Shown here: one piece after another, positions 1 to 54,953 of the stretch
How the letters are laid out: each line of letters starts with the position of its first letter
Numbering within the stretch: position 1 is the first letter of the stretch
From: a phage
Direction: 5' to 3' (one strand)
Length of the DNA stretch: 64,000 nucleotides
NCBI GenBank assembly: GCA_019326865.1
Contig: GCA_019326865.1_4101.1
The notes under the pieces: model-generated
The model's input: the letters and a program-made list of their open reading frames with translations, nothing else
What the model was told of the DNA's origin: nothing
Databases searched by the model: none
Made by a program: the position numbers and the translations under genes

Positions 1-1
1 T

Positions 2-2353: not shown

Positions 2354-2361
2354 AACACAAA

Positions 2362-2386
2362 GGGAACCTCGTGGTTCCCTTTTTTA
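2362..2386 (+). terminator. intrinsic terminator (gggaacc-tcgt-ggttccc + T-run)
   Basis: Perfect 7-bp stem, 4-nt loop, followed by tttttt immediately after sheath stop. Confidence 0.75.
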
Positions 2387-2741
2387 TTATTTAAAATTAA
2401 ATATATTATCTATTAATCACACTTTTTGGATATATTATGGAAGAAATACTCAAAAAAACATTACAAGAAGTTAGTAACACCGTATCAACACAGGCTGAAT
2501 CATTATTAATATTAAAAGCATTTATGGAGAATTTAGAACATTGTCGGTATTATTTGTGGTTATACTGTATACACAAATGGTAAATGGTCTATTGGAATAA
2601 ATTATATAGATTATAAACAAACTAAAAAATACTTGTATTGTGTTAATATAGATTGGTTCCCATGTTAATGACATACTTGAATAAAAGTATAAGTAATCGA
2701 TAAATAAAATAAAGATGTCATTCCATGATAGGAGAATATAA

Positions 2742-35377: not shown

Positions 35378-35417
35378 GGTTATTAATTAGAGTGACGTGA
35401 ATCACATAGGAGAATAC

Positions 35418-37706
35418 ATGAATCTTACTCAATTGTTCAAAAAAAGCGACGAACTGGCAACATCTCTCGGTCATACATTCTTGACTATTGACCATGTAAG
35501 TGCTACAGTACTAACCATTGATAGCATCAAGAATGTGTTTGAAGATATGAATATTGATGCAGACAAATTACATAATCGCTTAATGGACTATCTTAAAAAT
35601 ACATCGATTCCACATGCTCCAAAAAGTACCCAAGATGAAGATGCCAATCGTACTTCACTACTAGTGAATCGTGTCGTACATGAGCTTTCAAAAAAATCTG
35701 TCATTGAACAACTAAAAACGGATGATTTTTCAATTGATGCATATTTTGTGTTATTTGAATGCTTGTCTTTCCCAAACACTGCACTCGAAGCTGCGTTGAA
35801 AGAAGAAGGTGTTAGTTGTACTGAGGCTGCTCGTGCACTACAGAAACATGTTGAGACACTTAATAAGGGTATCAACCTACAAAGCATTAATGATGAACCT
35901 ACTGGAGATAAAAAAGTGGCTCAACCACAACAATCATCTAAACAAAAAGGTTTGGAAGACTACACAACAAATCTAACCGCTCTTGCAAAAGAAGGAAAAT
36001 TAGATCCGATGATTGGTCGCCAAAAAGAACTGTGTGCACTGATTGAGACACTAGCTCGTAAAACTAAAAAGAATGCAATTCTTACTGGTGAAGCTGGTGT
36101 AGGTAAAACACAAATCATTGACGGACTAGCACAAGCCATCGCTGATGGTAATGTACCTGAACATCTGAAAAATGTTGAAATTCTTTCACTAAATGTTGGT
36201 GCATTGACTGCTGGTACAAAGTACCGTGGTGAGTTTGAAGAACGCATCGATAATTTACTAAAAGAACTAAAGAAACGTGAAAATACTATTGTTTTCATTG
36301 ATGAAATTCATATTATGGTTGGTGCAGGTTCTGCAAGTAATGGCTCGATGGATATGAGCAATATGTTAAAACCAGCACTGTCACGTGGTGAGATTCGTGT
36401 GATTGGTGCAACAACATACGAAGAATATCGCAAAAATATCGAGAAAGATAGTGCACTAACACGTCGTTTTATGAAAATTGACGTAGTTGAGCCGACAATT
36501 GATGAAACTCGTACAATTGTTAATGGGTTAAAGTCAACTTATGAAAAATTCCATAATGTTGAGTTTACCGCCGATGCCATGGATGCTGTAATTTCTCTCA
36601 GCGATAAGTTCCTGAAGAATAAACACTTCCCTGATAAAGCAATTGACCTAATGGATGCTGCTGCGGCTAAAGTTCGTTCACGTGACAATAATAGTAAGCT
36701 TATTACTGCAAGTTTGGTTCAAGAAGTGGTTGCTGGTATTGCAAACTTAGATATCAATGTGGTTGCATGTACCGAAAGTGAACGTATGCGTAATCTTCCA
36801 GATGCACTTCGTTCACGTGTATATGGTCAAGATGAGGCTATTCAAAAATTAGTTGATAACGTAATGGTTGCTCGTGCGGGTTTGCGTGATAAATCAAGTG
36901 TTCAGGGTGCATTTATGTTTGTTGGTCCATCTGGAACTGGTAAAACTGAAATCACCAAAGCATTAGCTGACGCAACTGGTTCTGAACTTATTCGTTTTGA
37001 TATGTCAGAGTTTTCACAAGAACATACAGTATCTAAACTTATCGGTTCACCTCCAGGGTATGTTGGTCATGATTCTGGTAACGGATTACTGCTAGATAAG
37101 ATTGAACAGTTCCCTAATGCAGTTCTGTTACTTGATGAAATCGAAAAAGCAGATCGCAAAGTACTACTAACCTTTCTACAGGTTCTGGATGAAGGTCGTT
37201 TGACTGGTTCACAAGGAAAAACTGTATATTTTAATAACGTAACTGTTATTATGACTACAAACCTTGGTGCAGCAGATTCAACTAAACGTAGTATTGGTAT
37301 GAGTGGCAGTGAAACTGCACAAGATAAAGCAATCAAAGCATTTTTACCACCTGAATTCATTAACCGTATTGATAGTATCGTTACGTTTAATGAACTAAGC
37401 CGTGAAGCAATTGATAGTATCATTGACAAATTTATTGGAAGCTTAAATGACCAAGTAAAAAGCCGTAATGTAAAAGTTACTCTCACAAAAGCAGCACGTG
37501 AATGGTTGGCACAAAATGGTGTTCAAGCTGGCATGGGGGCACGACCTATGAAGCGTACAATTGAACAAAACATTCGTGTTCCACTAGCGAAAGAAATGTT
37601 GTGTGGAACGCTAGTGAATGGTGGTAACATCACATTTGATGTTATTAATGGTAAAATTGGCATCAAGCCAAAACGCACCAGAACAGTTGAAAAATCACTA
37701 GCCTAA
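35418..37706 (+). CDS. ClpA-like Hsp100 AAA+ unfoldase (two nucleotide-binding domains)
   Basis: D1 Walker [10 protein letters not shown], Walker B VFIDEIH; D2 Walker [31 protein letters not shown]; Clp-N-like N-terminus; ATG at 35418 has RBS aggag (listed ORF begins at GTG 35397). Confidence 0.85.
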
Positions 37707-37725
37707 AAAGAAAAAGGAGAGCACA

Positions 37726-37750
37726 ATGCTCTCCTTTTTTATTATTTAAC
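37726..37750. terminator. bidirectional intrinsic terminator (ggagagca-caa-tgctctcc)
   Basis: 8-bp perfect stem flanked by A-run and T-run between convergent genes. Confidence 0.75.
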
Positions 37751-40700
37751 TAACAATATATTCTTAATATCACTCCCACTTATTCGTAGGCTATTGGTAT
37801 ACATTGAAAGGTCTATTGTGTAACCATTATGAGTATAATGTTTAAATTTATCATAACTACCCAAATTAATACCATTAAAAGAATATGTAGTATTAAGTTT
37901 AAAGTCATGCTCAGCACTATACATTACTCCACGGAGCAAATTATTTGCATTTCTGACTTCAACTTTTTCATACCCAATCGATATAATGTCATTCCTGTTA
38001 GCAGAAGAACCTAATAACACATTATTTCTAATATTATAAGGACTTACTGATATAGGTTGAGCAACATACGTTGTATTTTCTTCACTGATAGTTGTTATGT
38101 TAGTGATAGTACCACCGACAACACCAATATATATATTGTCAACCATTGGATATTCATAACCCCATATACCTTCATTATTTTTGAATGGTTTGATATCATT
38201 CGCATCATATTCAATTACGTTAATTTCTAAACAATCAGGCATTTTAGTTCTTACCAATTCACTAAGAACACCATCCCCAGTAATTGGTAGGTTATACCCG
38301 TTATCTATAGTAATTCCATCGTCATTAAATATTTCGTTCGATACAATCCAAACATCAATATCATCAGGTGTTACACCGTCATTATACTTACCACCATTTA
38401 AAGTAGTATCATAAAAAACGTCATAATTAATCACATCAATAGTGTAATTTCGGTTTTGTTCATATAATTTAATACCATCTTTGACAAATTCTGAGTCAGT
38501 AAATGTTCTAACACGAACAATGTTCAAGGCAAGAGGCTGTACTGGCTCATTTTGTTGTGCAAGTGTGATATTATCATAACGAAGAACAGCACCAGAAGTA
38601 TCAACTAATTCAATCGTTTCCTTACCAGTAGTTCTTACTGTGAAAAGGATAGGAGTTGTATTATGTTTGATATTAGATACACGCAATATGGTTTCCCATT
38701 TATGGTTTTGATATCTTATAAAGTCTTCACCATCAGGAGTGAAAATCATCACCTTATCACCATCAGATAAGTCATTGTCAACAATTTCCGCTTCAGTCAA
38801 GCTATTAATAGATCTCACACGATAAAAATATTTTTCATCAAACGGTGCTGATTTTTTATTAATATCATTTTCAACCTTAGCATATGAAGGAATACTAACA
38901 ATTGCTTCTGTGTGTTTATATGGATTTATAATTGCCATACCTTCAGTTTGATATCTACTATTATTACGTAATTGCACTAGTGACACGTTGTCAAACCCAT
39001 ACCCATCAACAGTAAATCTAATATGCCCAACATCACGACCAGATGGATTTATATCAGATATGTCAATAATATAAGGATCAACTTCGTCGTCTTTAACTTC
39101 CCATTTTATGGTAGAAGTTTGTGATTCTAATGCAAGGTTATCAAATGCATTCATATCATTAAAGTACTTAGCTTCAGAAATACTATCAAGTATAAATTGA
39201 TAGTCTGAATACATTGGGTTATTTGTATCTTGTGGTAAATCGTCAAGATTTATTTCCGCAAGTTCAACCATTTCACCATTTGTAATAAAATAATCTTCCA
39301 TGAAATCATCAATACTTCTGTTATCTGGTATACTTTGGTTTACACCGTTAACATTTAAATATACATATTTCCTTGGCATCATAGTAATAGCATAGATATC
39401 AATTGGTGTTTTTGAAAGAATTTCTTCCGCTTTTTCGTACTTGTCGGTAGCATCTTTGTCAAACAACCCTCTCATACCTGCTAATACATGAACTGCATCT
39501 GAATAGAAACGAGTATCTCCACCAACCTCATCATAACGATAAACGTATACACCATATTCAACTTCTAGTTTTACTTTAATATCATAGTCTGATGCATCAG
39601 GATGTTTATCTTTAATTAAAGAAATATATTTTTCATATAATTCTTTACTTATTTCAAAATACCCATAGTTATAATCATTACTAGAAGAAAAGCCTAATGG
39701 AAGTCTTGTGCTCGGATTATCATTATAAGTCAATCCACTGAACCCACAACCAACTTCATCATGAATTTTATCATCACTGATATCTTTATAAAGTTTCAAG
39801 CGGTTGGCTAATGTGTTATACTGTACATATTGTCTAAGGTCAGTAAACATTTCATTATGCGTTGATTCTTTATAAACTCGTTCCAAAGTAGCAGTAAATT
39901 TATCAGTGGCTTCTAAATCATCTGCATGATCTTTATACCATTGGTTCACACCATGTGCAGTTCCAAGTGTTACATCCAATTCTGGATAATAGATTTGCAT
40001 TAGATACGCATTAACAAGGTCAAACGATTTTTCATTATATTCTGGGAAAGAATATATATAACGTTGTAATTCATAGTTATTAACAGAATCTTTTTCATTT
40101 GTTTGATATTTTTTATTAACACTAACTAAATCATTAATGTTTGCCAAATCTTCGTTTGGTTTACATTGAATGTTATCATAATGCATAATAATATCAATTT
40201 CTTGGAATCTTCTATTTGGGGTAATAAAATCACTAGGTAATGCACCAACTTGTTCCCATTTTTTAGTAACTTCATTATATTGTGCGTACTCGTAATCCCA
40301 AATATCTTTTTCAGTTTTAATCCAAGAACCATCAACGAAAATATACCCATTAGGATCTAAATCGTTACAAAGACCTTTTATTAAATCATCATCAGATGTT
40401 TTTTGTTCTATTTGTGAACGAATTTTAGTTCTATAAGGTTTAACCTCTTCAAAGTACTCAACAATTTGATTAATCAAATTATCATTTGAGTAATTTTGAA
40501 CTAAAGATTGTTCCAACCCAACAATATAGATATAGGAAGTTTTAAATACCCAATCTACAACACTTTGTTCGACGTGAACATATTTTACCATATCAAACAC
40601 AATTTCGCTTTGATGTAAATCGAAAGAATGTTTAAGTAATGCTAGTGCTTTACGAACATTTATTTCACGATTACTAAGGGAACCATCATCATTGTAAACA

Positions 40701-43700
40701 CTATAGTCTGTATAAAGTATATCATTAAGTTCAATAGTACTATTTTGACGACCAATAGCTTTCCAATAAATTGAATCACGTGATTGAGATTTGATATACA
40801 ACGTCCAAATATTTTCACTATCTGTAACTCTGATGATATCACCGACTTGATAGTTTTTAGTATTTGCTTCTTCTAAACTTGTCTCTTGAATATAAGCTGT
40901 TTTACTATCATACCCAACGTCATACCAATCAGCATATGACCAGTAATGAGTCATATCTAATGATGTTCCAAGTGATTCAACATAATCACTTTGCTTAATC
41001 ATTTTATGTTGTCCCTCACCTTTATTTTCTAAAGTTATAGTAACAATATTTCCTGTATTGGCCGGGCTGTTCATTAACTGAATATATCCATTTTCATCAA
41101 AGTGAATGAAATAAACTGCACTGGTGGATAAAGGATTTGGTAGATAACCGCTGGAACTTAAAATAACAGCGTCATTTTCTTTAAATTTATCCTTTTCGAC
41201 TGCAATCACCAATTCATTATTATAAGACAATACACGGAAAGAAACCTCATTTGGGTTAACTTCTGTTGTTTTGACATTAAACACATCTTCCATAACAACA
41301 CTATTAGTGGTTATGTTTTGTGATCTATAATAATTATTAGCACTTTCTACAAAGTTTCTACGTGCTTCAATTACATTCTGGAACCAGGTTTTATTGGAGC
41401 CGATTCCATTATCAACATCTGGATATAATAAATTTATCACTGAACCTGACTTGGTAGTTTCTTGTCCTATTAGTGAGTTCCACATTGAATCCCAAATTAA
41501 TGGATTGAAGTTATAACTTTCTCCCTCTTTACACAGTTGGTACTGATCATGTTTAACAACTTCAGTGCTGTCCATATAGTAAGAAATAGTCAAAATACTG
41601 GTGTCATCATTGACTTTAAACTGCATATTACTAAGGATAAAAGAGTTTTCATTAATTGGTGCAAACCAAGGAATGTTTAACTGTGATGGATCTTTAATAA
41701 TACGTGCAATATCAGTACATGATTTAGTTCTGGTATGTAGTGGTGGTACATAAATTGTATCACGTACCCAGAAATAGTATTTTGTCACATAACTGTCAGT
41801 TGAGCTATCATATTCCAAAAATGTACTATAATTATCTTCAAGTGCAGTTCCGCTTGGAAGATACATATTATTATTTTTGTTTTTCTTAGCAACATCTTTA
41901 CAGTACTTATCCCAGTTATATGGTTCTACTGGTGAACATACCCACTCTAATACATCAATTGTGCTATGTGGCAACAAACGCCCCCAGTTGTATCGTTTGT
42001 ATTCATTAGTTGCGTCAATATCAACATTACCATCTGCGTCATAAATGGCACGAGTATAATCCAAATAAAATGCAGTGCTTGTGTTCCACCATACTTGACC
42101 TACTTTATCTGCACCCCAAGCTTGAACTAATTCGCCATTACTATTATATTGTGCAGGGTCAATTGGTGAAGTATATGTCACGTTTTGCATAGCTGCACCT
42201 GGAATAACACCATTAATTGGGTCAAAAACGTTTAGATATAATGCAGTAATATTTGTGCGTTCATCATACGTTGTTGGTCGTTCAAATAAAGTGCTCTGTG
42301 GTGCTTTAAAGCTATATTTTTTGTCAATATATTCTTGACGTTTATCAGCACTAGAAAAACGTGAAACATAACGATACAAACGTGGACGAGTAGCCGGATC
42401 AGTAAATTCAATATTAATTGAAGTATCAAATGGAACTACCATAACTTTAGAATCTTCACCAGCAGTATAATATTGACTTTCTACTGTTAATGTATCTGGC
42501 ATAAAGTTTGTTTCATCAACAAAATAATAATAATCACCATCTTCAAGTGGGATTTTATCAGTCAATGTTACTTTACAGAATTGTTCAGCGTAAATATCGG
42601 TATTTTCTATTGGTGTTATAGAAACCATTTGTACATTAGTGTCAACTAATTCAAAAATGTTCCACAAACCATTACCATCTTTAAACATCCAAACTGATTC
42701 TGGATTTTCACCTTTACCGTTAACATAAGAAATTCTGTCGTTATATGCAGTACTGAAATCTTTAGTAGTGTAAGATACTTCATCTAATGTCACTGGACCA
42801 ATGTCAGGAAGTTGGATATGTTCACTTCTCCCACTACGCATTGGAAATGAAAATTTTCCATTCGGGCGTGTAATCCAACGTGGGTCTTTACCTTGATCAC
42901 CAAAATATACAACATTATTACCATTGCCATTTGAAGTTGCGTTTTCATCAAATGACACCATTTGTGGTTGTTGTTTAAATTGGTCATTAATTAATTTAAA
43001 TTGGAGATTTTTCTTACCATCAATATTACCATATGTACCAATTTTAAATGCCCATTCTTGTAATGCTTTATACTCATCTGTGTCATATGATTTAGAAACA
43101 CGTAAAACACGTTCTAAAACTTGGTTAGTGCCTTTGTCATGAATAAATCCTTTATAAAAATCAACACGACTAACATCGCTACTAATCATACGTTGTAGAT
43201 AATCACGTGATTGGTAACCAATTAAATGACTAGATAATTCTTGTAATTGTACATCGCTTACAGGGTTTTCATTATCATAGTAATGTTGAAAATCAGTTAC
43301 TAATGTTTCAAATGAAGGAATTGTACCAGATTCTAATATAATAAAACCAGGTGCTTGTAATCTACCCGTCCATGAACCAGTAATATAACCGTACATTTTG
43401 ATTAGTTCCTGAATAGAACCATATGTTGGTTGATAGATGTAATCACCAAAAATAGTTTTATCATCAAATATAACCGCATGTTCATATGAACACAAACTTA
43501 AACGAAGTAATGCAATACGTTTATTAGAATCTAATGTTCTAACAGTGAAAATATTACCAATACGAGAAGTTTCGATTTCATATTGACGAATTCCTTGGTT
43601 ATTATCATCAAGTAATGACCATACTCCACCATTATTTTGTGCAATAGACTGAACTGAGCCAAAATCTGAACCAAATTTTGCATTTGTTGCACTTGGTGTA

Positions 43701-46700
43701 CAAGATATAAATTCCCCAGTTACAAGAGAATTCTGGCTCCACATCACAAAATCTTTAGCAATAGTGTTCCAATCTTGCTGAACGCCGCCATCATTTACAT
43801 CTTCGAAGATCCAGCCATGTTCTTTAAGATACTCACCATAACCACAAATAAAAGTATAGACTTCTTGGTAACTGTTAAAAACCGTTCCATATTCAATAGA
43901 AGCCTCAGACTTCCATTCATTGTAATGGACAACATTACGGTTTTCTAATTTAATAGTTACTTTTCGACCATTTTTCACTGGGAGTTTATATTTAAATTTA
44001 GCACCAACCAAATCATATCCATCGATTTGATATGCACTGCCATTCCATGTAATTTTGATTGCACTCATCTGTTCATCACGAATATTATTCGAACGTACAA
44101 GTCCAATTGTTTGGTTTTCTTGAGAAATCAACCCAAATGATTTAGCATTGAATGTTAGTTGGTCTGCTTTAGTAAAGCCTCCAATTTTATGTCCTACATT
44201 TACATAAGAAGAACGAACAATATCACCATATTTTGTAGTAATGTTTTTATTTTGATACATCAAATAATCACTAACGAACATTTGATACCCAATTGTTCTT
44301 GTGTTATTTTCACCATGAACAGTGGTTTTTTTATCAAAATTAACACGATTACGGGTATCCCCATAAAGAAATTGTTCACCACCAGTGAATATTTCTTTTA
44401 AATTATCATTTCGGGTGTCCCAAAAATAGTTTGCGAATTGTGCTGGTTTAGCTTTATACAATAGCATCATTTGGTCATATGCAAATAATGTGGTATTCAT
44501 GTAAGTGAATTCCATGTCACCCATATCACCATATGCCCAAGGTTCTGCTCTGTGATTTAAAGAACCAGATACTAAACCTAAAATCTCAGGGGCAATATAC
44601 TCAACAACACAAATATCCACACCAGATGATGTTTTATTTCCAGTTTTTGTAATTTTAAATGGTTGTACACCAAATCTTCTATATTTGTTATACTGACCAC
44701 GACGTTCACCAGATAAAATTGTACCAGTGCTACTATCCCCAATAGTATCATTAATATTCCAAAGACCGCTAGGAACTAAATCACCTTGTTCATCTGTGAC
44801 AAGTGCTTCATATACATATACAACATCACTATCACGTTCACCAACTTGAACAGCAGTTGGTTCATATTCTTGGTTCCACCAAGTAGGACGTTGTGTAAAT
44901 CCAAACATTTCCCATGGATGTGTTGCTGGACGATATGTACCATATTGGTCAGTATAGATTGCACGCCACGAACCACGAGCAGGAATTTCAGTACTTTTAC
45001 CATCAACCATATAATAGGTTCCAGTGTAGTTCCATGTTCTCCAGTTACTTGGGTCATAATCATGTGTACTATTACTAATACCATTGGATGCTGTAAAATT
45101 AATATAACCACGTAATAAAAGTGTTTGTTTTTCTTCTGCACTATATTCAGTTTTTGTAAAATATGGAGTAGGGAAAAGGTCATCACTATTCAATACTGGA
45201 ACATAATCAACATCTTTGAATTTATTATCAATACTATTAAAAATTCTATTTTCCAACTCATAAACAACATCATCCATTTTATCAACACCATTAATTACGC
45301 GATATGCTTTTGAAATGATACCAGTATGGCTAATGTTATAAAAGCTTGGTTTACTACCAGCAGTTAGAAATGTAGCTTTCTCAGGAACATATGCTTGTAG
45401 AATACCCAAAAACTGTGGTGTTGGTGGTATAAATGCACGAATAAGTCCAGATGTGCTTCCTACATTATCATAATAGAACGGGAATGAGCTATCACGTCCC
45501 ATATTGATAGTAGTTAAAATAGAATCAACAATACTTGCTGCACTATTTTGTAAAAAGTTTGATGGATTTTCATTATACATACGAAGCATTTGAGTATTAA
45601 ATTTATTAATGAATCTGAAATATTCAGATTGCATAAACATAGTTGCTTCAAATAAATCAATATCTTCATTTGCAGTATGAGCCATCAATGGGAGCATAGA
45701 AGCTTCATTTTGAATAATTTTAGTTCCTACTCCATTATTCACTAATCCCTTAGCTAAACGTTCTTCATAATCGTTGAAGTCATCAGCATAACCACTAGTG
45801 ATATTCTGTTGAATAATATCCTGAAAATGAAGAGTATAGTCTCCTTGATTAATATATATAATATTGGAGTTATATGGGTTATTTTGTAAGTTAATTGGAA
45901 CTTCATATGCACCTAATTCTTTATCAGGTGTTACAGTTCTACTATAAGTTCTAATTTGGATAACAGAATCATCATCTAAATCTATCGAACTATCAAGTGT
46001 GATGCTTTGTACTTGACCTTTTGATACATTCTTTGTATATTTTGATACATTAACACCATCGACATTAACTTCAATAATATCAGAATCATTATCTAAAACT
46101 TTTTGAGCTAATTCAAACGTATGATTATATTTTAAAATCTGAATACCATCACCACTAATCTGATGCCAGTCCAAATAAGTTTCACGTTCTGCTTTATAGT
46201 ACTGATATGTTCTATCAACTTCAATAACATATGCATACATACCATCAACAGGTTCTTTGAACACTTCCATGTCATAAACAGTACTGAACACTCGATACAT
46301 GTCAGTACGTTGGACCTGTGGAGTTTGTTTTACATATTGTTTAGAGTATTCTTTTGAACGAACCCAATCAGTTTTTAGATTCATTTTATTAGTTTCATCA
46401 ATAATGTTATAATAATACAATCCACCAATTTCAACTTCAACACCAAGATGGTCATATGTATAACGTTGTGATTGCAAAAAGTTTTCATATGTGTAATAGT
46501 TGTAATCACCAAGTTCAATGTTATACCCATATACGCTATCAGTAGCGTAATTGTAATTTATTTTAAAACCAAATAATTGTGAACCTTTAAAGTTACTGGA
46601 TGGGTATGTTGTACTATTATCTAGTTTAATCCCATTGCGATCATAAAGTTGGAACTGTGGGAAGACGTTAACACTAGGTTTAGACTGTGCACGAACCCAC

Positions 46701-47737
46701 AAAGTACCATTCCAAAACATAGAACTATTACCATATTCATTACCTTTGGTAATTAAAACAACATCTCCATCCTGTGGTTCACCACTTGGACGAGATTCTG
46801 ATTCTTCATCGGGGTCTAGTGCTAAGCCATAAACACGTGTACCATCTTGCATTTTTTTAACATATATTTTATAAATTCTATTGTTTTCGCCATCGTTACC
46901 AATACTAGTGAATAGAATACGCATACCATCTTGTGGAATAATACCATCAATGCGAATACCACTATTGACATCTTTTTGGATAATATCTTCAGGTTTAATA
47001 TTATCAGAAAAAAGTTCAACTGTGCCACGGAATTTTGTACCATAGTTAATTAGCTCAATATTTTTATTATATTCAATAATTGGTGCACGAGCACGAATAA
47101 AACGAGCATCTTGCATTAATTCTTCGGTCAAGATAGAACCATCTTCCAGTGTTTCACCTAAAGTATACCAAAAGTTTTGTAATGACCAAGTATTACCATT
47201 ACGTGCACCACGTTCCATGACAATGTAGTCAGGGGTAGTAATATTATAAGAGTTTTTTGTATCCCAAAGATATGAGCTAAAATTATTCATTTTATTTGGG
47301 TTGATAGCAGGTGTCCATGCATAAAACTTACCGTTAAATAAGCGGCTTTCATTATCGGTTAGTGCTCCGTAATGACTCATGTACCCAACCAGATCATCAT
47401 AAAATTGAATTGAACGAATAGTCGAATCATCATTTTTAGAGACGTAAGCAGTGGACAACTGATAAAGTTGTCGAGCAACAGTACTTTCGTGTAAAAAGAT
47501 ATTACCAGCAGCGGCTGGAGAACCCATATCACCAATATAACCGTCAACTAATTCGTTTTCAGCCGGATTAAACCATTGTTGAATAACATCATCACTGACT
47601 TTCTGAATATCTTCTAAGCCTTGCATCCACTCAGGCAATCTTTTAATAAAAAGCTTTTTCTGTACTGCTTCAGCCATCTGTGTAGGTTGAAACTTAAAAT
47701 TATTAGTCATTTTCTGGACTCCATATAATTCGTTCAT
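37742..47737 (-). CDS. giant virion structural protein (3331 aa; baseplate wedge/fibre-network candidate)
   Basis: Uninterrupted 10-kb ORF in AT-rich DNA; immediately downstream of gp6-like baseplate gene. Confidence 0.6.
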   Translation of the reverse strand: MNELYGVQKMTNNFKFQPTQMAEAVQKKLFIKRLPEWMQGLEDIQKVSDDVIQQWFNPAENELVDGYIGDMGSPAAAGNIFLHESTVARQLYQLSTAYVSKNDDSTIRSIQFYDDLVGYMSHYGALTDNESRLFNGKFYAWTPAINPNKMNNFSSYLWDTKNSYNITTPDYIVMERGARNGNTWSLQNFWYTLGETLEDGSILTEELMQDARFIRARAPIIEYNKNIELINYGTKFRGTVELFSDNIKPEDIIQKDVNSGIRIDGIIPQDGMRILFTSIGNDGENNRIYKIYVKKMQDGTRVYGLALDPDEESESRPSGEPQDGDVVLITKGNEYGNSSMFWNGTLWVRAQSKPSVNVFPQFQLYDRNGIKLDNSTTYPSSNFKGSQLFGFKINYNYATDSVYGYNIELGDYNYYTYENFLQSQRYTYDHLGVEVEIGGLYYYNIIDETNKMNLKTDWVRSKEYSKQYVKQTPQVQRTDMYRVFSTVYDMEVFKEPVDGMYAYVIEVDRTYQYYKAERETYLDWHQISGDGIQILKYNHTFELAQKVLDNDSDIIEVNVDGVNVSKYTKNVSKGQVQSITLDSSIDLDDDSVIQIRTYSRTVTPDKELGAYEVPINLQNNPYNSNIIYINQGDYTLHFQDIIQQNITSGYADDFNDYEERLAKGLVNNGVGTKIIQNEASMLPLMAHTANEDIDLFEATMFMQSEYFRFINKFNTQMLRMYNENPSNFLQNSAASIVDSILTTINMGRDSSFPFYYDNVGSTSGLIRAFIPPTPQFLGILQAYVPEKATFLTAGSKPSFYNISHTGIISKAYRVINGVDKMDDVVYELENRIFNSIDNKFKDVDYVPVLNSDDLFPTPYFTKTEYSAEEKQTLLLRGYINFTASNGISNSTHDYDPSNWRTWNYTGTYYMVDGKSTEIPARGSWRAIYTDQYGTYRPATHPWEMFGFTQRPTWWNQEYEPTAVQVGERDSDVVYVYEALVTDEQGDLVPSGLWNINDTIGDSSTGTILSGERRGQYNKYRRFGVQPFKITKTGNKTSSGVDICVVEYIAPEILGLVSGSLNHRAEPWAYGDMGDMEFTYMNTTLFAYDQMMLLYKAKPAQFANYFWDTRNDNLKEIFTGGEQFLYGDTRNRVNFDKKTTVHGENNTRTIGYQMFVSDYLMYQNKNITTKYGDIVRSSYVNVGHKIGGFTKADQLTFNAKSFGLISQENQTIGLVRSNNIRDEQMSAIKITWNGSAYQIDGYDLVGAKFKYKLPVKNGRKVTIKLENRNVVHYNEWKSEASIEYGTVFNSYQEVYTFICGYGEYLKEHGWIFEDVNDGGVQQDWNTIAKDFVMWSQNSLVTGEFISCTPSATNAKFGSDFGSVQSIAQNNGGVWSLLDDNNQGIRQYEIETSRIGNIFTVRTLDSNKRIALLRLSLCSYEHAVIFDDKTIFGDYIYQPTYGSIQELIKMYGYITGSWTGRLQAPGFIILESGTIPSFETLVTDFQHYYDNENPVSDVQLQELSSHLIGYQSRDYLQRMISSDVSRVDFYKGFIHDKGTNQVLERVLRVSKSYDTDEYKALQEWAFKIGTYGNIDGKKNLQFKLINDQFKQQPQMVSFDENATSNGNGNNVVYFGDQGKDPRWITRPNGKFSFPMRSGRSEHIQLPDIGPVTLDEVSYTTKDFSTAYNDRISYVNGKGENPESVWMFKDGNGLWNIFELVDTNVQMVSITPIENTDIYAEQFCKVTLTDKIPLEDGDYYYFVDETNFMPDTLTVESQYYTAGEDSKVMVVPFDTSINIEFTDPATRPRLYRYVSRFSSADKRQEYIDKKYSFKAPQSTLFERPTTYDERTNITALYLNVFDPINGVIPGAAMQNVTYTSPIDPAQYNSNGELVQAWGADKVGQVWWNTSTAFYLDYTRAIYDADGNVDIDATNEYKRYNWGRLLPHSTIDVLEWVCSPVEPYNWDKYCKDVAKKNKNNNMYLPSGTALEDNYSTFLEYDSSTDSYVTKYYFWVRDTIYVPPLHTRTKSCTDIARIIKDPSQLNIPWFAPINENSFILSNMQFKVNDDTSILTISYYMDSTEVVKHDQYQLCKEGESYNFNPLIWDSMWNSLIGQETTKSGSVINLLYPDVDNGIGSNKTWFQNVIEARRNFVESANNYYRSQNITTNSVVMEDVFNVKTTEVNPNEVSFRVLSYNNELVIAVEKDKFKENDAVILSSSGYLPNPLSTSAVYFIHFDENGYIQLMNSPANTGNIVTITLENKGEGQHKMIKQSDYVESLGTSLDMTHYWSYADWYDVGYDSKTAYIQETSLEEANTKNYQVGDIIRVTDSENIWTLYIKSQSRDSIYWKAIGRQNSTIELNDILYTDYSVYNDDGSLSNREINVRKALALLKHSFDLHQSEIVFDMVKYVHVEQSVVDWVFKTSYIYIVGLEQSLVQNYSNDNLINQIVEYFEEVKPYRTKIRSQIEQKTSDDDLIKGLCNDLDPNGYIFVDGSWIKTEKDIWDYEYAQYNEVTKKWEQVGALPSDFITPNRRFQEIDIIMHYDNIQCKPNEDLANINDLVSVNKKYQTNEKDSVNNYELQRYIYSFPEYNEKSFDLVNAYLMQIYYPELDVTLGTAHGVNQWYKDHADDLEATDKFTATLERVYKESTHNEMFTDLRQYVQYNTLANRLKLYKDISDDKIHDEVGCGFSGLTYNDNPSTRLPLGFSSSNDYNYGYFEISKELYEKYISLIKDKHPDASDYDIKVKLEVEYGVYVYRYDEVGGDTRFYSDAVHVLAGMRGLFDKDATDKYEKAEEILSKTPIDIYAITMMPRKYVYLNVNGVNQSIPDNRSIDDFMEDYFITNGEMVELAEINLDDLPQDTNNPMYSDYQFILDSISEAKYFNDMNAFDNLALESQTSTIKWEVKDDEVDPYIIDISDINPSGRDVGHIRFTVDGYGFDNVSLVQLRNNSRYQTEGMAIINPYKHTEAIVSIPSYAKVENDINKKSAPFDEKYFYRVRSINSLTEAEIVDNDLSDGDKVMIFTPDGEDFIRYQNHKWETILRVSNIKHNTTPILFTVRTTGKETIELVDTSGAVLRYDNITLAQQNEPVQPLALNIVRVRTFTDSEFVKDGIKLYEQNRNYTIDVINYDVFYDTTLNGGKYNDGVTPDDIDVWIVSNEIFNDDGITIDNGYNLPITGDGVLSELVRTKMPDCLEINVIEYDANDIKPFKNNEGIWGYEYPMVDNIYIGVVGGTITNITTISEENTTYVAQPISVSPYNIRNNVLLGSSANRNDIISIGYEKVEVRNANNLLRGVMYSAEHDFKLNTTYSFNGINLGSYDKFKHYTHNGYTIDLSMYTNSLRISGSDIKNILLVK

Positions 47738-47757
47738 TCATTTATTTTATTTATTAG

Positions 47758-47783
47758 ATAAAAAAGGCGTTCCGAAGAACGCC
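47758..47783 (-). terminator. intrinsic terminator (ggcgttc-cgaa-gaacgcc; T-run on minus strand)
   Basis: Perfect 7-bp stem 10 nt after stop of 47793..51254. Confidence 0.6.
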
Positions 47784-47792
47784 AGTGTAACA

Positions 47793-50700
47793 TTAAGAAC
47801 CAATATTTATATTGCTTTTAGCTAATGAGTTAACTATTTGAACATTTTCTACAGATGCAGTACTCAAAAATATTTGGTCAGAACGTGATGGAATTTCAAA
47901 TAGAGAACCAAATTTTGAATTTGGATTTTGTGCAACTATCACAATTGTACTAATATGTCTACCCAATTGGGAATGTATATAAGTACACAAATCAGTGTAA
48001 TAGAAACTTTCACCAAAATCCCAGTTATCGACATTAAAATATTCATTTGTTAATGCAATAACATTTTGACGAATTTCATCATCACTCATAGTGCTATTTG
48101 GTAATTTAACAACTTTAAAATCAGCTTTATAGTCTTCAGCAGCACTATTACCAAACAATGGTAGATACTCTGCACTATGCCAAATAATACTGTCACTGAT
48201 GACAGTTTTTTGTTCAACATCTTTGAACATATTTTTCAATTCAACTGATGTAGGTGGTTTTGGGATACTTCCAACTGCATTATTTTTCAACCACACATCA
48301 ACTTCGGTTTTATATGAGTTAGTTAGAACATACATATCAATTAAGTTTGTTCTACTTGGATCAATGCGATTATCATCAGGTGCATAATGCTTCCAATGGA
48401 AATCAATACTTGTACGAGCATTTGTTTTAACTGTGTATTGTGCAGTGACATCTTTATAACCATAGTAATCCAATTTCTGATTCTCATCTGAAATAGTACC
48501 CATATTGTTAATTGTACGATAAAATGCGAGTTCTGGAGTAACAGTGATGGTGTCATCTGAATATGTCAAATTACTAATTAATTGGCCCAAACGATCATTG
48601 TTGTTACCAACGGTCTGTTCGATGAAATAATATTTACCATCATATTTAAAACACACCAAGAATCCAGAACCTTTACTGTACAATCCACTCAATGAGTTAG
48701 AACGAATTGCATTATTTCGTACAAATTCAGTTCTTTTATATGTATTAGGTTCAGCTAATGCTTGTTCCATAGTATAAGACCAAGATGAATCTAGAAGCGT
48801 GAATGTATCATTTGGTAAAGATAGAACTGAAATAGTAAAATCATTATTTTCTTTGAATATCAAAATACCACCATATTTTAATGCATCAGAACCTGACCAT
48901 TCTGGGACAATTTCTTTAAATTGATTTGGCTCTAATGGTATACCATTACTATCTACTTTTCTAGATGTGACTATAATACGAGAGCCATCAAGATATCCAT
49001 TTTCTTGCTGTATTGTATCATAAATTTGAAAATCAATATTACTCGTTAGTCCAGAATTGTTAGTACTTGTGGTGTTCGAAGATAAAATTTCAATCTTATC
49101 ACTTTGAACCGTACCAGTACTAATATCAGTTATTTTTTTGGATGAAACAAAGTAAAATTTCACTTTATCTCCACCGACGAATATATATTCAATACCATTA
49201 GCGTCAAATTCCCAGGTTTCTGCTGTATATCTGACATTTATAACAACCAAAACTTCATGACCATTATACACAATAGTATCATCATTCGTACTTACTTCTA
49301 CAGGAACCCATGCAGTTGTTTCTTTGTCATGAACGATGACAAAATCAGTTTTCTTATCCAACATTGCAGAAATAGATTGAACTTCAACGGAATCAAATCT
49401 AGTTCTATATGGTAATATATAATCAATTGCTTGCATTCTACTTGGCACAGATGTACTTAATACATAAAACCCATTATCTAAGACACTAACAACGCTTGCC
49501 CATACTGTAGATGTAGAGTTAGAAAATTTAATCAAAGTACCTACCTGATACGAGCCATATACGGTTCCAGATGAACCCAAAATTCTACCATATGTATTTG
49601 TAGTATAATTTGAATTATATACAGGCGTCCATGATTGTTGGATTTCAATGCCAATCGTATTGGAAGGGTAAGCTTGATAGCGTTGTATTACTGCATTTTC
49701 ACCAATCAATGGTTGAATATTATCAATAACAATACTGGCATTAGTTTTTGTTGTTGGTAGTAGTAATGATTTATTAAATTTAGTATTTTCTTGATATAAT
49801 GCTCCGTCATCACTAAAAACATCAGTGTTTTGGTATTTCCCAGTAGGATCATTGATGTCAATAAATCGAGACTGACCACTATAAATTCTATTAATAGCTT
49901 TCGACTTAAGTACTGTATTTCCTAAGCTAAGAGGTGCTATATTATAATCTTCGCCATTAACAAAACGGTTTTGTGTATAGTACATTTGTGGTGCACGTGC
50001 TTTAATCTGCTCAATCGTCTCAGCACTTTGTGCACGGTCGGATTCATATTGTAATGAAAAACGCACATCCAACGTACTAGATTCATAGCTTGATTGGGTT
50101 TTAGTTCGATATGTATACTTTACACTTTTATTTTGAATTTCTGATGTTTTAATGTTATACGTTTTACCATTGCTGACGCGATACCACACGCGAAATGTTC
50201 CACGCGGAACAACACCACTTCTAGAATCTGGATATTTAATTGTTATTTGGTCTTTGTCACGAGTTGAAACAGCAAAAATTGTTTTTAATTGACGGTTAAC
50301 CGTATTATATGCAATACTTTCCATAGATGGAACTTTTGTCCATTTCGCACGCACAATGCCGTCTTCATTAATTTCTTGAACCCAAACATCAGTTTCGTTT
50401 ATATTATCAACGTTTACATCTTGTATTCTATTTTCTTCACGAATGTTATATTGATAATCTTGATATGTCAACGTCCCTTGTATAAAATATACAAAAAAAC
50501 CAGTATTTGGTGAACTGAATCCATTACCATCATTTTGATATACAATATATTTTTGTTCTTGTGGTTCTGGGTGACGTTCCTCAACACCAACGGATGTAAT
50601 GTCAGGGTTTACCACTTCAAATGTCATAGATTCACCATTTACTGTTGCAACAAATGGTATACTTGGTGCAGTCATTGGAATCGTATTCATTCTATACAAT

Positions 50701-51254
50701 TGTCGTGATACACCATTAACATCAATACGTTTAACTGGGTTCCCAAATTGATTAGTACTAACAAATGAACTATTCATAACAAGAATGAAGTTTTCATACC
50801 AATTTGCATCCATCGGGTCATTCCAACGAATAATTTTATCTTTGAGTGATTCATTGAAACTATTACGAACATCTTGGTTAGTTTTAATTTCAGTTAATTT
50901 TGCAACTGCACGTCCAGGATAAGAGCGACGTGGTGTATAAGAAATCATTTTAGCTAGTTTTAGAACTGATGCACGACGTGTTGCAGTATCTAAAAAGTTT
51001 TCACGCGTGTTCAAATCCATACGAAATGCCAAGTTCTGCCCTAGCATAGAAATTGTATCCAGAATAAAAATGAATTGGTCATTTTCAATCCAGTCATTGA
51101 ATGAATCAGGATATGTTTGACGCAAATAATCAATCATACTCTGGCGAATAGTATCAAAATCATATGCAGTAAGGTTGATTTTATAAAAACTTTCATAAAC
51201 TTGAGTCCAATCTTCACCACTATATAAATTCGATTGCCTTTTTTGTTGTGACAT
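47793..51254 (-). CDS. baseplate wedge protein (gp6 / Baseplate-J-like)
   Basis: N-terminal block FLDTATRRASVLKLAKMISYTPRRSYPGRA parallels T4 gp6 pattern as recalled; gene-order context. Confidence 0.55.
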   Translation of the reverse strand: MSQQKRQSNLYSGEDWTQVYESFYKINLTAYDFDTIRQSMIDYLRQTYPDSFNDWIENDQFIFILDTISMLGQNLAFRMDLNTRENFLDTATRRASVLKLAKMISYTPRRSYPGRAVAKLTEIKTNQDVRNSFNESLKDKIIRWNDPMDANWYENFILVMNSSFVSTNQFGNPVKRIDVNGVSRQLYRMNTIPMTAPSIPFVATVNGESMTFEVVNPDITSVGVEERHPEPQEQKYIVYQNDGNGFSSPNTGFFVYFIQGTLTYQDYQYNIREENRIQDVNVDNINETDVWVQEINEDGIVRAKWTKVPSMESIAYNTVNRQLKTIFAVSTRDKDQITIKYPDSRSGVVPRGTFRVWYRVSNGKTYNIKTSEIQNKSVKYTYRTKTQSSYESSTLDVRFSLQYESDRAQSAETIEQIKARAPQMYYTQNRFVNGEDYNIAPLSLGNTVLKSKAINRIYSGQSRFIDINDPTGKYQNTDVFSDDGALYQENTKFNKSLLLPTTKTNASIVIDNIQPLIGENAVIQRYQAYPSNTIGIEIQQSWTPVYNSNYTTNTYGRILGSSGTVYGSYQVGTLIKFSNSTSTVWASVVSVLDNGFYVLSTSVPSRMQAIDYILPYRTRFDSVEVQSISAMLDKKTDFVIVHDKETTAWVPVEVSTNDDTIVYNGHEVLVVINVRYTAETWEFDANGIEYIFVGGDKVKFYFVSSKKITDISTGTVQSDKIEILSSNTTSTNNSGLTSNIDFQIYDTIQQENGYLDGSRIIVTSRKVDSNGIPLEPNQFKEIVPEWSGSDALKYGGILIFKENNDFTISVLSLPNDTFTLLDSSWSYTMEQALAEPNTYKRTEFVRNNAIRSNSLSGLYSKGSGFLVCFKYDGKYYFIEQTVGNNNDRLGQLISNLTYSDDTITVTPELAFYRTINNMGTISDENQKLDYYGYKDVTAQYTVKTNARTSIDFHWKHYAPDDNRIDPSRTNLIDMYVLTNSYKTEVDVWLKNNAVGSIPKPPTSVELKNMFKDVEQKTVISDSIIWHSAEYLPLFGNSAAEDYKADFKVVKLPNSTMSDDEIRQNVIALTNEYFNVDNWDFGESFYYTDLCTYIHSQLGRHISTIVIVAQNPNSKFGSLFEIPSRSDQIFLSTASVENVQIVNSLAKSNINIGS

Positions 51255-51317
51255 AATTTATTCCTTTAAATCAGTAAAGTACTAGTTCAGTACTGGGAAT
51301 TATATAGAAATATTTAT

Positions 51318-51346
51318 TCAAAAAGAAAAGCACTCAGAAGAGTGCT
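51318..51346 (-). terminator. intrinsic terminator (agcactc-agaa-gagtgct)
   Basis: Perfect 7-bp stem with flanking A/T runs after stop of 51356..51751. Confidence 0.55.
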
Positions 51347-51355
51347 TTTTCTTAA

Positions 51356-51751
51356 TTATAAAGACGATACTGAATAAGTTGCCATTCTATTATTACTTCT
51401 TGCATCAAAGACTATAGAAAGTTCTTCTACTGTATTCAATACAACGTATTGTAATACGATATTCATTTGGTATCCATATTCAATTCTTGAAATTTGTATG
51501 TTTTTAAGATTTAATCGTGGATCTAAGCTAATAATCCTACGTGCATCGGCTTCTAAAAGGTTAATAGTATTATATCCTTCCAATTCAAACAACAAATCCC
51601 ATGCAATAAACCCATAGTCTGCATCAAATGCTCTTTCGCCTTTTTTTGTATTAAAATGATTCATCAAATCCTGTCGAACCAATTCATTATCATACAATGT
51701 TTCAGTTCTACCCACAACTGGTGTAGAGAAACCTTTGAAAACAACTGCCAT
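51356..51751 (-). CDS. baseplate wedge protein (gp25 / GPW-like)
   Basis: ~130 aa; pattern KKGERAFDADYGFIAWDLLFE...PRL parallels gp25 family as recalled. Confidence 0.55.
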   Translation of the reverse strand: MAVVFKGFSTPVVGRTETLYDNELVRQDLMNHFNTKKGERAFDADYGFIAWDLLFELEGYNTINLLEADARRIISLDPRLNLKNIQISRIEYGYQMNIVLQYVVLNTVEELSIVFDARSNNRMATYSVSSL

Positions 51752-51764
51752 TGTCTATTTCCTT

Positions 51765-52253
51765 TTATACGGATTCGACGATACGTGCCATCTTTTCCGC
51801 TCTAGAAGTGGTTTGTTTATACCATGCACTATCACGCAATTCTTTACCAGCAGTTTTATAATCAGCTTTGCCTAATGCGGTCATTGCTTTTTTGAATTTC
51901 AAAACTTTGGTTTTACCCATTTGGAATACCATCATCCACAATACACGCTGTACCTGTACTGGTGCGGTCATACCAAATTGTTCATAAATGGATTTTGCGT
52001 CATTGTACGCGGTTTGAGCATCTTTAATAAGAAGTTGGTCTGCTTGTTCTTCAGTTAAACCATTTTTGAAGTTCTCATTGGGTAGAACTAAATGACCATA
52101 ACCAATAGTATCAAGACCAAGGCTATCTTTATATACCCAAAACTTATCATTTTTAAAATATCCAAGTTTTTTTTGATAAGAAATTGTACCTTCAAACTCT
52201 TTAATTTCTTTAAAAAACTGCTCATCTGTATTTTTAATTTCCCATTTACTCAT
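51765..52253 (-). CDS. T4-type lysozyme (GH24; endolysin candidate)
   Basis: EGTISYQ...DTIGYGHL catalytic region, MVFQMGKT, SAWYKQTTSRAEKMARIVE; matches T4 gene e pattern as recalled. Confidence 0.85.
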   Translation of the reverse strand: MSKWEIKNTDEQFFKEIKEFEGTISYQKKLGYFKNDKFWVYKDSLGLDTIGYGHLVLPNENFKNGLTEEQADQLLIKDAQTAYNDAKSIYEQFGMTAPVQVQRVLWMMVFQMGKTKVLKFKKAMTALGKADYKTAGKELRDSAWYKQTTSRAEKMARIVESV

Positions 52254-52289: not shown

Positions 52290-54953
52290 TTATTGACATG
52301 CCTCCAAACGTCGAGCCATTAACTCAGCACGGCGGGTCGTTTGACGATACCAAGCCGAATTACGGATTTGTGCTGCTGCTTGTTTATAATTTCCTTTCGC
52401 TAATTCAGATAACATTGTTTTAAATTTAAGAACTCCACCTTTGCCCATTTGAAATACCATTTGACATAGAACTTGTTGTGCCATATAAGGAGTTTTCATG
52501 TTATATGATGCATAAATTGATTTAGCATCATAAATTGCTTTACTACTATCACGAACAAGCATATCATTTGCTTGTTGTTCAGTTATCCCAGAAGAAAAGT
52601 TTTCACCATTCACAATTAAGTGACCGTAACCAATAGTTGGGAAGCCACGACTATCTAAATAACGCCAGAATTTACCATTTCGATAATACCCTTTTGCTTG
52701 CTGATATTGCATAGTACCCTCATATTCCTTTAATTCGGAAATAAATTGAGAATCGCCAGGTACAATTTTCCAATCTATTGCAGTTTTATCTACATTACCG
52801 ACATTATATGTTGGTTGCACAACTGGAGTAGATGATACACCACTTCTCTGTGTTCTTTTTTTACGAGGAACATGTCGGGAGCCACGTTGTGAATAACCAG
52901 TCCCAATTGTTTTAATTTTGGTAGTAACAACCAATTCATCACTATCAACGGATGGTTGCACTACTGCTTGTGGTGAAGATTGATTTGTTGCTTGACCTGC
53001 AATCAATGTTTTATTAGCTGCGTCTGCACCAATACCAGTTTGTGATGCATAAAACAATCCTGGGTCAACTGAACCACTAAAGCCGAGTACGTTAGCTGAC
53101 GTTACACGTATTTCAAATTGCATAACACCATTTGCTTTACCAATGACCTGTCCCTTTTGAACAACATCCTTGTTTAGTAAATTAGTTTGAATATTATAAA
53201 ATATAGATTTATAACCCGATTTATGTTGTATCAAAATTCCACCATTAGTAATTACAACAACACCCCCATCTGGTGCAACAACATCTCCTTTACATTGTAT
53301 TTCCCATCCAGAACGGTCAGTCTTTCCTCCATTTTGTGTTGGTACACCTTTTCCCCAATAACCATATTGACGAATGGTCCCACTACACGGCATATACATA
53401 TGCAAACCCTCATATGTAATGCTATACCCAGTCATTCCAGTATCAGATACCATTAAATCTTGTGTTTGTACTTGTTCAGTTTCGGATGTATAATTCACAA
53501 ATTGAATAGCTTCAGTTTCTTGAGCTTCAGGTATTTCAGGCGTAACATCATTTGCAGGCTGTGGTTGAACAGGTGATTCACTTGAAATCTTCCCCCCACC
53601 TTGTCTCGGTGGTTCAACATAACTACCATGGTTTTTCGCATCAACCCATGCAACAATATCATGAATGTGTTCATTAAGGCCAGTAGATGGTGTTTTAAAG
53701 TTCGGAGCAGTAAATTCCGCTGTTCCGCTGTTTCCTCCACTATTAACTGTCAATGTTTCTCCCCCACCACTAATGATTGCAGATGATGAACCAATTAAAT
53801 TTGCGGAAGTAGAAGCAGATATAGATGCATTCGAACCTGCTGTAATATCAGTACTGCTACCACTTTGCATACGCAAGGACGCAGCAGTGACTAATCGAAG
53901 ATCAGCACCTGAATTGACCACAACTTGTCCACCAACTTTTGCATCAAGAGTTCCAATTAAATCTAATTTAGTATTGGCTCCTACGCGTGCATTAAAATCT
54001 TGACCAGTTTCAATATTATATGAACGTCCAGCAGTGATATTAATATCTTGTCCTGCACGAATATTGATATTCTTATCACAGTGCATATCAATATCCCCTT
54101 CACCAGTAAATTTTATACGGGCGGTTCCATCACGATTAATCAAAAGTACATCCCCTGTTGCTTCTGATAATAATAGTTGTGCACCACTACGTGTTTTTAT
54201 TACAACTCCTTCATTTTTTCGAGAACCAACACGTGTGTCGTTTACTGGGTTATTGAATTGTGTATCTTGATATCCATCTGGGTCTTGATCCCATGTAGGT
54301 GCAGTTAATTCCTCTTCTGTATAACCATCATCAATAATGAAACTATTTCCACGTGGGGATGACATCCCATATACAGTACTCGTTGTTTGACGAGTACTAC
54401 TTCGGTTAGCAAGACCAGCTTCTTCATCATACAAAAGGTTTTGCTTTTTAAGACCAGCAATAATTGGAACGTTTGCATATTTGTCTTGCATATCAGTAGT
54501 GATTGTGTTACGATCATAGTCAGTAACAGGAAGAGGCATATCTGTGCCGCTATAACTACTAATCTCGGTTGCCATACCAGGGACCATAGTATTCATGCGG
54601 TGGTCATATACACAACCAATCCAATACGCTTGAAATGTACGTGCCTGTGCGAAAATCACAACAACAGTGCACCCAACATCAGGCGGCACAGCCCAGAATC
54701 CATATCCTTTAGGATATTGCCCATAAGCATCTGCACTTGGAATACCTGGAGTTTTACCAGCAAAAGGAGACATATAAGATGCCTCAATCCATGATTCTTT
54801 TGAATTTTTATCGCTTTGTGAACCTTGTATCCAAACTTTTAACTTTCCAGATTTAGTTGGATCTCTATTATCCATAACTGTTGCTAATTGTGGATAAGCT
54901 GGGTCAAAACGACCCAACTGTTGTTGTGCATACTTTTTACTTGTATCTGCCAT
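52290..54953 (-). CDS. baseplate central spike / hub protein with C-terminal lysozyme domain (gp5-like)
   Basis: C-terminal lysozyme domain paralogous to 51765..52253; central S/G/T-rich beta-helix-like repeats; M23-peptidase-like segment lacking His. Confidence 0.6.
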   Translation of the reverse strand: MADTSKKYAQQQLGRFDPAYPQLATVMDNRDPTKSGKLKVWIQGSQSDKNSKESWIEASYMSPFAGKTPGIPSADAYGQYPKGYGFWAVPPDVGCTVVVIFAQARTFQAYWIGCVYDHRMNTMVPGMATEISSYSGTDMPLPVTDYDRNTITTDMQDKYANVPIIAGLKKQNLLYDEEAGLANRSSTRQTTSTVYGMSSPRGNSFIIDDGYTEEELTAPTWDQDPDGYQDTQFNNPVNDTRVGSRKNEGVVIKTRSGAQLLLSEATGDVLLINRDGTARIKFTGEGDIDMHCDKNINIRAGQDINITAGRSYNIETGQDFNARVGANTKLDLIGTLDAKVGGQVVVNSGADLRLVTAASLRMQSGSSTDITAGSNASISASTSANLIGSSSAIISGGGETLTVNSGGNSGTAEFTAPNFKTPSTGLNEHIHDIVAWVDAKNHGSYVEPPRQGGGKISSESPVQPQPANDVTPEIPEAQETEAIQFVNYTSETEQVQTQDLMVSDTGMTGYSITYEGLHMYMPCSGTIRQYGYWGKGVPTQNGGKTDRSGWEIQCKGDVVAPDGGVVVITNGGILIQHKSGYKSIFYNIQTNLLNKDVVQKGQVIGKANGVMQFEIRVTSANVLGFSGSVDPGLFYASQTGIGADAANKTLIAGQATNQSSPQAVVQPSVDSDELVVTTKIKTIGTGYSQRGSRHVPRKKRTQRSGVSSTPVVQPTYNVGNVDKTAIDWKIVPGDSQFISELKEYEGTMQYQQAKGYYRNGKFWRYLDSRGFPTIGYGHLIVNGENFSSGITEQQANDMLVRDSSKAIYDAKSIYASYNMKTPYMAQQVLCQMVFQMGKGGVLKFKTMLSELAKGNYKQAAAQIRNSAWYRQTTRRAELMARRLEACQ

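Follow-up and report, generated by a model that had tools for sequence, protein, structure and literature searches.

The window analysed here is a 64,000-nt stretch of phage DNA (GenBank assembly GCA_019326865.1, contig GCA_019326865.1_4101.1), and its longest open reading frame (ORF) is that of a giant gene at positions 37742..47737 on the minus strand. We consider it probable (approximately 60%) that this gene encodes a large baseplate wedge protein which is the positional, and probably the functional, equivalent of T4 gp7 without being a detectable homologue of it. This reading is based on strict and often translationally coupled adjacency to a gp6-like gene, on late-gene signals, and on the detection of orthologues in virions by mass spectrometry (MS). 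We do not claim membership in the gp7 family because the sequence and fold tests were negative.

By its nucleotide sequence, the window is from an Asteriusvirus-like jumbo coliphage, i.e., a jumbo myophage of the Rak2/121Q type. The 10-kb stretch has 96.9% nucleotide identity to Escherichia phage UE-S1 and ~89% to 121Q, PBECO4, phAPEC6 and other Asteriusvirus records, with 35 records covering at least 80% of it. Both gene and family already have entries (in GenBank and as PHROG 10938), and orthologues are already known from virions. In the searchable papers, we found only MS detections and use of the gene as the 'largest ORF' for genome orientation, with no role or structure assigned. What is added here is the argument from the gp7 position over 15 contexts, the size of the family, its architecture of a core and a variable C-terminus, its split variants, and a confident 1141-aa model without any solved fold relative.

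Gene order, late-gene signals and virion detection

The order gp25-like gene, gp6-like gene, giant gene is present in 15 of 15 related contexts (seven phage genomes and eight metagenome contigs), where the stop and start codons of the gp6-like and giant genes often overlap. Each of the eight metagenome contigs opened contains a gp25-like gene, a gp6-like gene with DUF8360, and the giant gene, and the giant genes of PA5oct, Atu_ph07 and SCTP-2 likewise follow gp25-like and gp6-like genes. In the window, these two genes are on the minus strand: the gp25-like wedge gene at 51356..51751 (Pfam GPW_gp25, 8.6e-09) and the gp6-like baseplate wedge gene at 47793..51254. The latter encodes a 1153-aa protein, the presumed partner of the giant protein, which matches PHROG 10646 (E=0) and PHROG 219 (1.1e-19) and whose homologues carry Pfam DUF8360. 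These matches bear out the initial annotation of the stretch, which had placed the giant gene downstream of gp25-like and gp6-like genes. The neighbouring structural genes of the window yielded no further candidate for a gp7, TssG or gpI.

A late promoter of its own probably drives the giant gene: an invariant ATAAATA that follows a conserved terminator matches the late-promoter motif of phage CBB. The terminator comes after the gp6-like gene (47760..47783, minus strand) and is intrinsic, with a 7-bp GC-rich stem, a UUCG loop and a T6 run; its letters from 47783 to 47760 are GGCGTTC-TTCG-GAACGCC, followed by the T run. A hairpin terminator separating the two genes had been noted before, and its stem is maintained via compensatory changes in four relatives (121Q, RaK2, XaC1 and GAP32). 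The T4-late-promoter-like ATAAATA is between this terminator and the start codon (47748..47754, minus strand) and is invariant in five genera. For CBB and GAP32, the authors of the CBB study proposed that ATAAATA serves structural genes as their late promoter (PMC5259590). The 121Q annotation includes a gp55-like sigma factor.

The virion MS evidence comes from three orthologues. For phAPEC6 gp245 (381.88 kDa), 17 peptides were found (PMC7247149, Table 1), and for CBB_236, 21 peptides (PMC5259590). PA5oct EST35_0128 (gp128) is positive by electrospray ionisation tandem MS (ESI-MS/MS) according to its record.

Reading frame and start codon

The ORF is uninterrupted over 3331 codons plus a stop, as first described, and the chance of an equally long open frame is ~1e-123 given the regional base composition. 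It is a real gene of ~10 kb. Searched against PHROG 10938, its product gives E=0 and 5637 bits, with residues 10-3328 aligning to profile positions 1-3324 of 3324. That family is labelled 'virion structural protein', and 121Q gene 582 is annotated likewise. The same gene occurs in RaK2 (ORF070w, 3326 aa), XaC1 (XaC1_312, 3332 aa) and GAP32 (GAP32_230, 3341 aa), within a matching block that also contains a convergent ClpA-like gene. The N-terminal part of the window protein has 64-69% amino-acid identity to the RaK2, GAP32 and CBB orthologues. The orthologue in the EJP2 record (OQ411014.1) is named 'D-alanyl-D-alanine carboxypeptidase', for which we saw no support.

Translation probably begins at the tenth codon (the second in-frame ATG, 47710), which makes 37742..47710 (minus strand) the probable coding sequence. 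We favour this start because GGAG occurs 8 nt upstream of it (47722-47719), the equivalent codon is used by 121Q gene 582, XaC1_312 and GAP32_230, the PHROG 10938 alignment begins at residue 10 of the 3331-codon ORF, and the upstream ATG in RaK2 runs directly into a stop (ATG ATA TAA), i.e., no ORF starts there. The nine extra N-terminal codons (MNELYGVQK; 47711-47737, minus strand) are probably untranslated. The long form seems to be annotated in UE-S1 and the short form in 121Q. Computed from 47710, the product begins MTNNFKF and has 3322 aa, a mass of 382.3 kDa (in agreement with the 381.88 kDa given for phAPEC6 gp245 in PMC7247149) and an acidic pI of 4.7. Residue numbers below follow the 3331-codon ORF.

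Antisense ORFs within the gene had been dismissed as shadows by the initial annotation, and we agree: the longest (44786-45115, plus strand) is broken by one to four stops in 121Q, RaK2, XaC1 and GAP32 and is therefore a shadow ORF.

Predicted structure and tests for known families

The giant protein has no internal repeats or self-similarity and no transmembrane segment. Searches of Pfam, NCBIfam and PDB sequences, with both the single protein and a 20-sequence profile, gave no match, and neither enzyme families nor fibre families were detected. An AlphaFold2 (AF2) model of aa 10-1150, made with 26 diverse sequences, is confident over its 1141 aa (mean predicted local distance difference test [pLDDT] 86.9, predicted template-modelling score [pTM] 0.78). 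It consists of a disordered tip, a helical segment at aa ~29-56 (moderate confidence), and then alpha/beta, beta-sandwich and helical domains. A second model covers the C-terminal part. Neither has a significant PDB match, and only the N-terminal model is confident. The giant protein is acidic and non-repetitive and, by these models, consists of mixed alpha/beta globular domains.

The initial annotation had proposed a comparison with gp7-like and gp10-like proteins, and this yielded no similarity: profile comparisons (hhalign, hmmsearch) with T4 gp5, 6, 7, 8, 9, 10, 11, 12 and 53 were all null, hhalign giving T4 gp7 a probability of 0.4% and hmmsearch giving negative scores. Together with the Pfam, NCBIfam and PDB sequence searches, these comparisons gave no sign of homology to the gp7, Tail_P2_I or TssG families. 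Fold similarity to solved gp7-like chains was not found either, though a search with whole chains could overlook an element as small as the conserved one of gp7. The placement of the gene is of the gp7 type, i.e., directly after a gp6/TssF-like gene, as in the T4 gene order 6-7-8.

Family size and architecture

The family is much larger than a single-sequence search suggests. A word-indexed search with the window protein alone returned 3 proteins, whereas the same search with an alignment as the query returned 85 homologues, all of 2667-3465 aa save three split or fragmentary ones of 1308-1575 aa. Among 1.84 billion representative proteins, a profile built from the N-terminal 440 aa found 1531 clusters (at 50% identity) with E<=1e-3, 753 of them with E<=1e-30. 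Among the matches listed, the module is almost always at the N-terminus, and most of the best 150 matches have 2200-6362 aa. The newly returned proteins in these best 150 include 122 of at least 2000 aa (median 3900 aa, maximum 6362 aa). At 3322 aa, the window protein is thus ordinary or even small for its family.

Positions 1 to ~2400 of the full-length profile (window aa 10 to ~2470) are matched in 75-100% of these 122 giants, which defines a family-wide conserved core at 40328..47710 (minus strand). Its conserved blocks are aa 10-158, 165-450, 600-960, 1010-1640, 1810-2150 and 2260-2460, and insertion hot spots occur after aa 158-165 and at aa 1640-1810. The N-terminal module (aa 10-450; 46388..47710, minus strand) includes the helical segment and the first hot spot. 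The last ~800 profile positions, by contrast, are matched in only 2-18% of the giants. The corresponding C-terminal region (aa ~2471-3331; 37745..40327, minus strand) is clade-specific, being present only in Rak2-like phages, where its 862 aa are always collinear yet diverge faster than the N-terminus. For example, identity to RaK2 is 47.6% in the C-terminus and 68.7% in the N-terminus, and the corresponding values for GAP32 are 39.7% and 63.1%.

Some relatives have carbohydrate-binding modules inserted in the core: P0108 contains DUF642 (aa 314-471) at the first hot spot, and CBM_5_12 occurs within core loops of P0118 (aa 1539-1568), P0141 (aa 1412-1443), P0073 and P0077. The window protein lacks these DUF642 and CBM_5_12 modules. 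Such inserts suggest that parts of the core are exposed.

This architecture does not support the initial annotation's idea of a fusion of several wedge or fibre modules. Nearly all of the 122 giants, each a single polypeptide, match the ~2400-aa core, and we saw no separate ancestral pieces, no resemblance to T4 gp5-gp12 or gp53, no PDB match and no repeats.

Alternative explanations

Instead of a wedge protein, the giant protein could be a tail fibre, a receptor-binding protein or the scaffold of a branched fibre network, which we consider unlikely. Its models are globular, and no fibrous repeats, beta-helix or trimerisation motifs were found in it. A distal domain exchanged with host range was not found either: phages from at least six host genera all have homologous, collinear versions of the C-terminal 862 aa.

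Also improbable is a virion protein located outside the baseplate, either an ejected/internal protein (for which the N4 virion RNA polymerase of ~3500 aa is a comparison) or the material of the tail-surface hairs of phAPEC6 and CBB. MS is compatible with such a role because it shows virion presence only, the folds of the giant protein are unassigned, and the hair-like tail fibres on phAPEC6 and CBB are unexplained (PMC7247149, PMC5259590). It is hard to reconcile, however, with a giant gene that strictly adjoins the gp6-like gene in 15 of 15 contexts, frequently with stop/start overlap. Also against such a role are the lack of enzyme families in the giant protein and the presence of the family in RaK2, which is not described as hairy in the literature examined.

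A tape measure protein is very improbable. The giant protein is very long and is encoded within the tail module, but the AF2 models are beta-rich and made of multiple globular domains with no single long helix. Moreover, 3322 aa of helix would extend ~500 nm (our own estimate), ~4 times a tail of ~125 nm (CBB 123 nm, PMC5259590; RaK2 128 nm). The models already effectively refute this explanation.

An artefactual fusion of neighbouring genes by sequencing or assembly error, of which the initial annotation had warned, is already refuted: nothing favours it except a few database records that split the gene, these are minority outliers among close relatives, and in more than 35 phages sequenced independently of one another the gene has 3320-3345 aa. 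Counting dozens of metagenome contigs along with these phage genomes, the single ORF has 3310-3465 aa, more distant relatives carry 2667-6362 aa, and alignments to a contig of a Richelia metagenome-assembled genome (MAG) overlap the ORF borders. Because orthologues are intact in many genomes and detected by virion MS, we exclude an assembly artefact. The split records are SD-1_S14, SD-2_S15 and SD-6_S16 (OR699181-3) and CMSTMSU (MH494197.1), in which the gene is divided into three to four hypothetical proteins, probably by frameshift errors. The Richelia MAG contig likewise looks like a frameshifted assembly.

Proposed role in the baseplate

If the giant protein is a wedge protein at the gp7 position, one copy would be present in each of the six wedges. 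In T4, gp7 joins a dimer of gp6, and in type VI secretion TssG joins a dimer of TssF. By analogy with these (gp6)2-gp7 and (TssF)2-TssG complexes, the predicted N-terminal helical segment (aa ~29-56) may join the N-terminal helices of two gp6-like subunits. The ~2400-aa core would then form the intermediate and peripheral ring built in T4 from gp7, gp8, gp10 and gp11, with surface loops pointing outward where relatives insert carbohydrate-binding modules. The fast-evolving C-terminal ~860 aa would be the outermost layer, docking the clade's own fibres or touching the cell envelope, and from this layer the signal of attachment would pass inward to the sheath and the gp6/gp25 ring. We regard it as possible, though only as a tentative proposal, that a single chain with predicted folds unmatched in the PDB does the work which T4 divides among gp7, gp8, gp10 and gp11.

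By mass, six copies would amount to ~2.3 MDa, and adding twelve gp6-like chains (131 kDa each) gives ~3.9 MDa, which fits the ~36 x 15 nm baseplate of CBB (PMC5259590).

Several points weigh against a wedge protein at the gp7 position. We infer the baseplate location from gene order, MS speaking for virion presence only, and likewise infer the copy number per baseplate. The C-terminal AF2 model is only partly confident (pLDDT 63.5), and the two modelled parts amount to approximately two-thirds of the chain, with aa 1151-2249 outside them. The initial annotation's extremely large baseplate or fibre-network component therefore stands as a very large virion protein encoded in the baseplate gene module (from synteny and orthologue MS), while gene order makes a location in the baseplate probable.

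Split variants

Two metagenome contigs contain a natural split form of the gene: L009 3614-17612 (JGI 3300033072 Ga0364570_10306) and L012 5790-9716 (ENA ERZ27239220 k141_415511). Both encode the first ~445 aa in a gene of its own, joined to ~890 aa of RCC1/WD40-like repeats, which shows aa 1-445 to be an autonomous module. The rest of the giant protein in L009 (window aa 444-2741, 40% identity) resumes ~3 kb downstream, on the far side of three small ORFs and of an element with a serine recombinase and OrfB_IS605/TnpB.

The 1575-aa protein P0003, from the Richelia MAG, was considered as a minimal form of the family and rejected: its contig holds the whole collinear gene in frame-broken form. 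This 66-kb contig (L008; GCA_012033295.1, JAAURC010000028.1, 'Richelia sp.' MAG) was binned as a cyanobacterium. It is phage DNA because it carries a full phage baseplate module (gp5, gp25, gp6-like gene, giant gene and gp10-like gene), in which frame changes divide the giant gene into three ORFs.

Other neighbouring genes

Upstream of the giant gene, the same-strand genes are, in order, a 749-aa structural gene, a gp5-like hub gene, a lysozyme gene, and the GPW_gp25 and gp6-like genes. The gp5-like hub gene (52290-54953, minus strand) encodes 887 aa with an OB domain, DUF2345, an M23 peptidase-like stretch and a C-terminal lysozyme. The stand-alone lysozyme gene which comes after it (51765-52253, minus strand) is a second one. 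In 121Q, an HNH endonuclease gene ('associated with group I intron') is between the gp25 and gp6 genes (L001 7717-8481). The corresponding place in the window (51254-51356) has no HNH gene, only a 100-nt spacer with a bidirectional terminator-like hairpin (51325-51350).

Downstream, a gene for a ClpA/ClpB-like double-AAA ATPase (769 aa; window 35397-37706, plus strand) converges on the giant gene, and the two share a bidirectional terminator hairpin (37710..37740). The pairing is retained in 121Q, RaK2, XaC1 and GAP32 but not in PA5oct, and it is conceivable that the ATPase is a chaperone linked to the giant protein. In distant relatives, a gene for ~195-210 aa repeatedly comes right after the giant gene (L002 20645-21250, L004 20391-20987, L008 22490-23086, L009 8041-8646, L010 22786-23418, L014 15598-16185, L016 17390-17992) and is MS-positive in PA5oct. 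The ClpA-like gene occupies its position in Rak2-like phages. We do not claim that these small genes are homologous to each other.

Significance

In the searchable papers, no baseplate of a jumbo phage of the Rak2, 121Q or PA5oct type has been resolved to individual proteins, and the only reconstruction of such a baseplate that we found is at 25 Å (PMC7247149). Six copies of the giant protein (~2.3 MDa) would probably make up the largest share of that baseplate. If the proposed role is correct, the jumbo phages of a very large clade (no fewer than 1531 protein clusters at 50% identity, the longest members reaching 6362 aa) would share a distinct baseplate architecture, in which the loops and variable C-terminus would serve as integral sensors of the cell surface or as docks for fibres. 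The giant protein is an obvious target for cryo-electron microscopy and for engineering the host range of jumbo phages, which are now in development for therapy: its huge family combines a fixed core with a variable C-terminus, and its two modelled parts match no solved fold. For annotation, we offer the label 'baseplate-module giant structural protein at gp7 position', which also flags split and misnamed records.

Comparison with known systems

The Rak2-like orthologues (121Q 582, phAPEC6 gp245, PBECO4, UE-S1, RaK2 ORF070w, GAP32_230 and CBB_236) have the same length, neighbours, terminator and promoter as the window gene, from which they show no essential difference; the window lacks 121Q's HNH gene. 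PA5oct EST35_0128 (3857 aa), Atu_ph07 gp180 (4449 aa) and SCTP-2 gp140 (3807 aa) share the ~2400-aa core at 22-30% identity. The distant relatives, including metagenomic proteins of up to 6362 aa, occupy the same position after gp25-like and gp6-like genes, but their C-terminal extensions are different and usually longer, and they have large inserts after aa 158 and near aa 1640-1810.

T4 gp7 (1032 aa) is likewise encoded directly after the gp6 gene and is a large multi-domain structural protein, and the N-terminal helical segment of the giant protein could join a gp6 dimer as gp7 does. The giant protein differs in being three times longer and in having no detectable sequence or fold similarity to gp7. 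Furthermore, T4 encodes gp8, gp10 and gp11 separately, whereas no equivalents were found adjoining the giant gene. P2 gpI, Mu gp48 and TssG of type VI secretion are minimal counterparts of T4 gp7. In phiKZ, PHIKZ027 and PHIKZ087 (PDB 9xqd, 9xqs) are likewise large (~900-960 aa) peripheral baseplate proteins of a jumbo phage.

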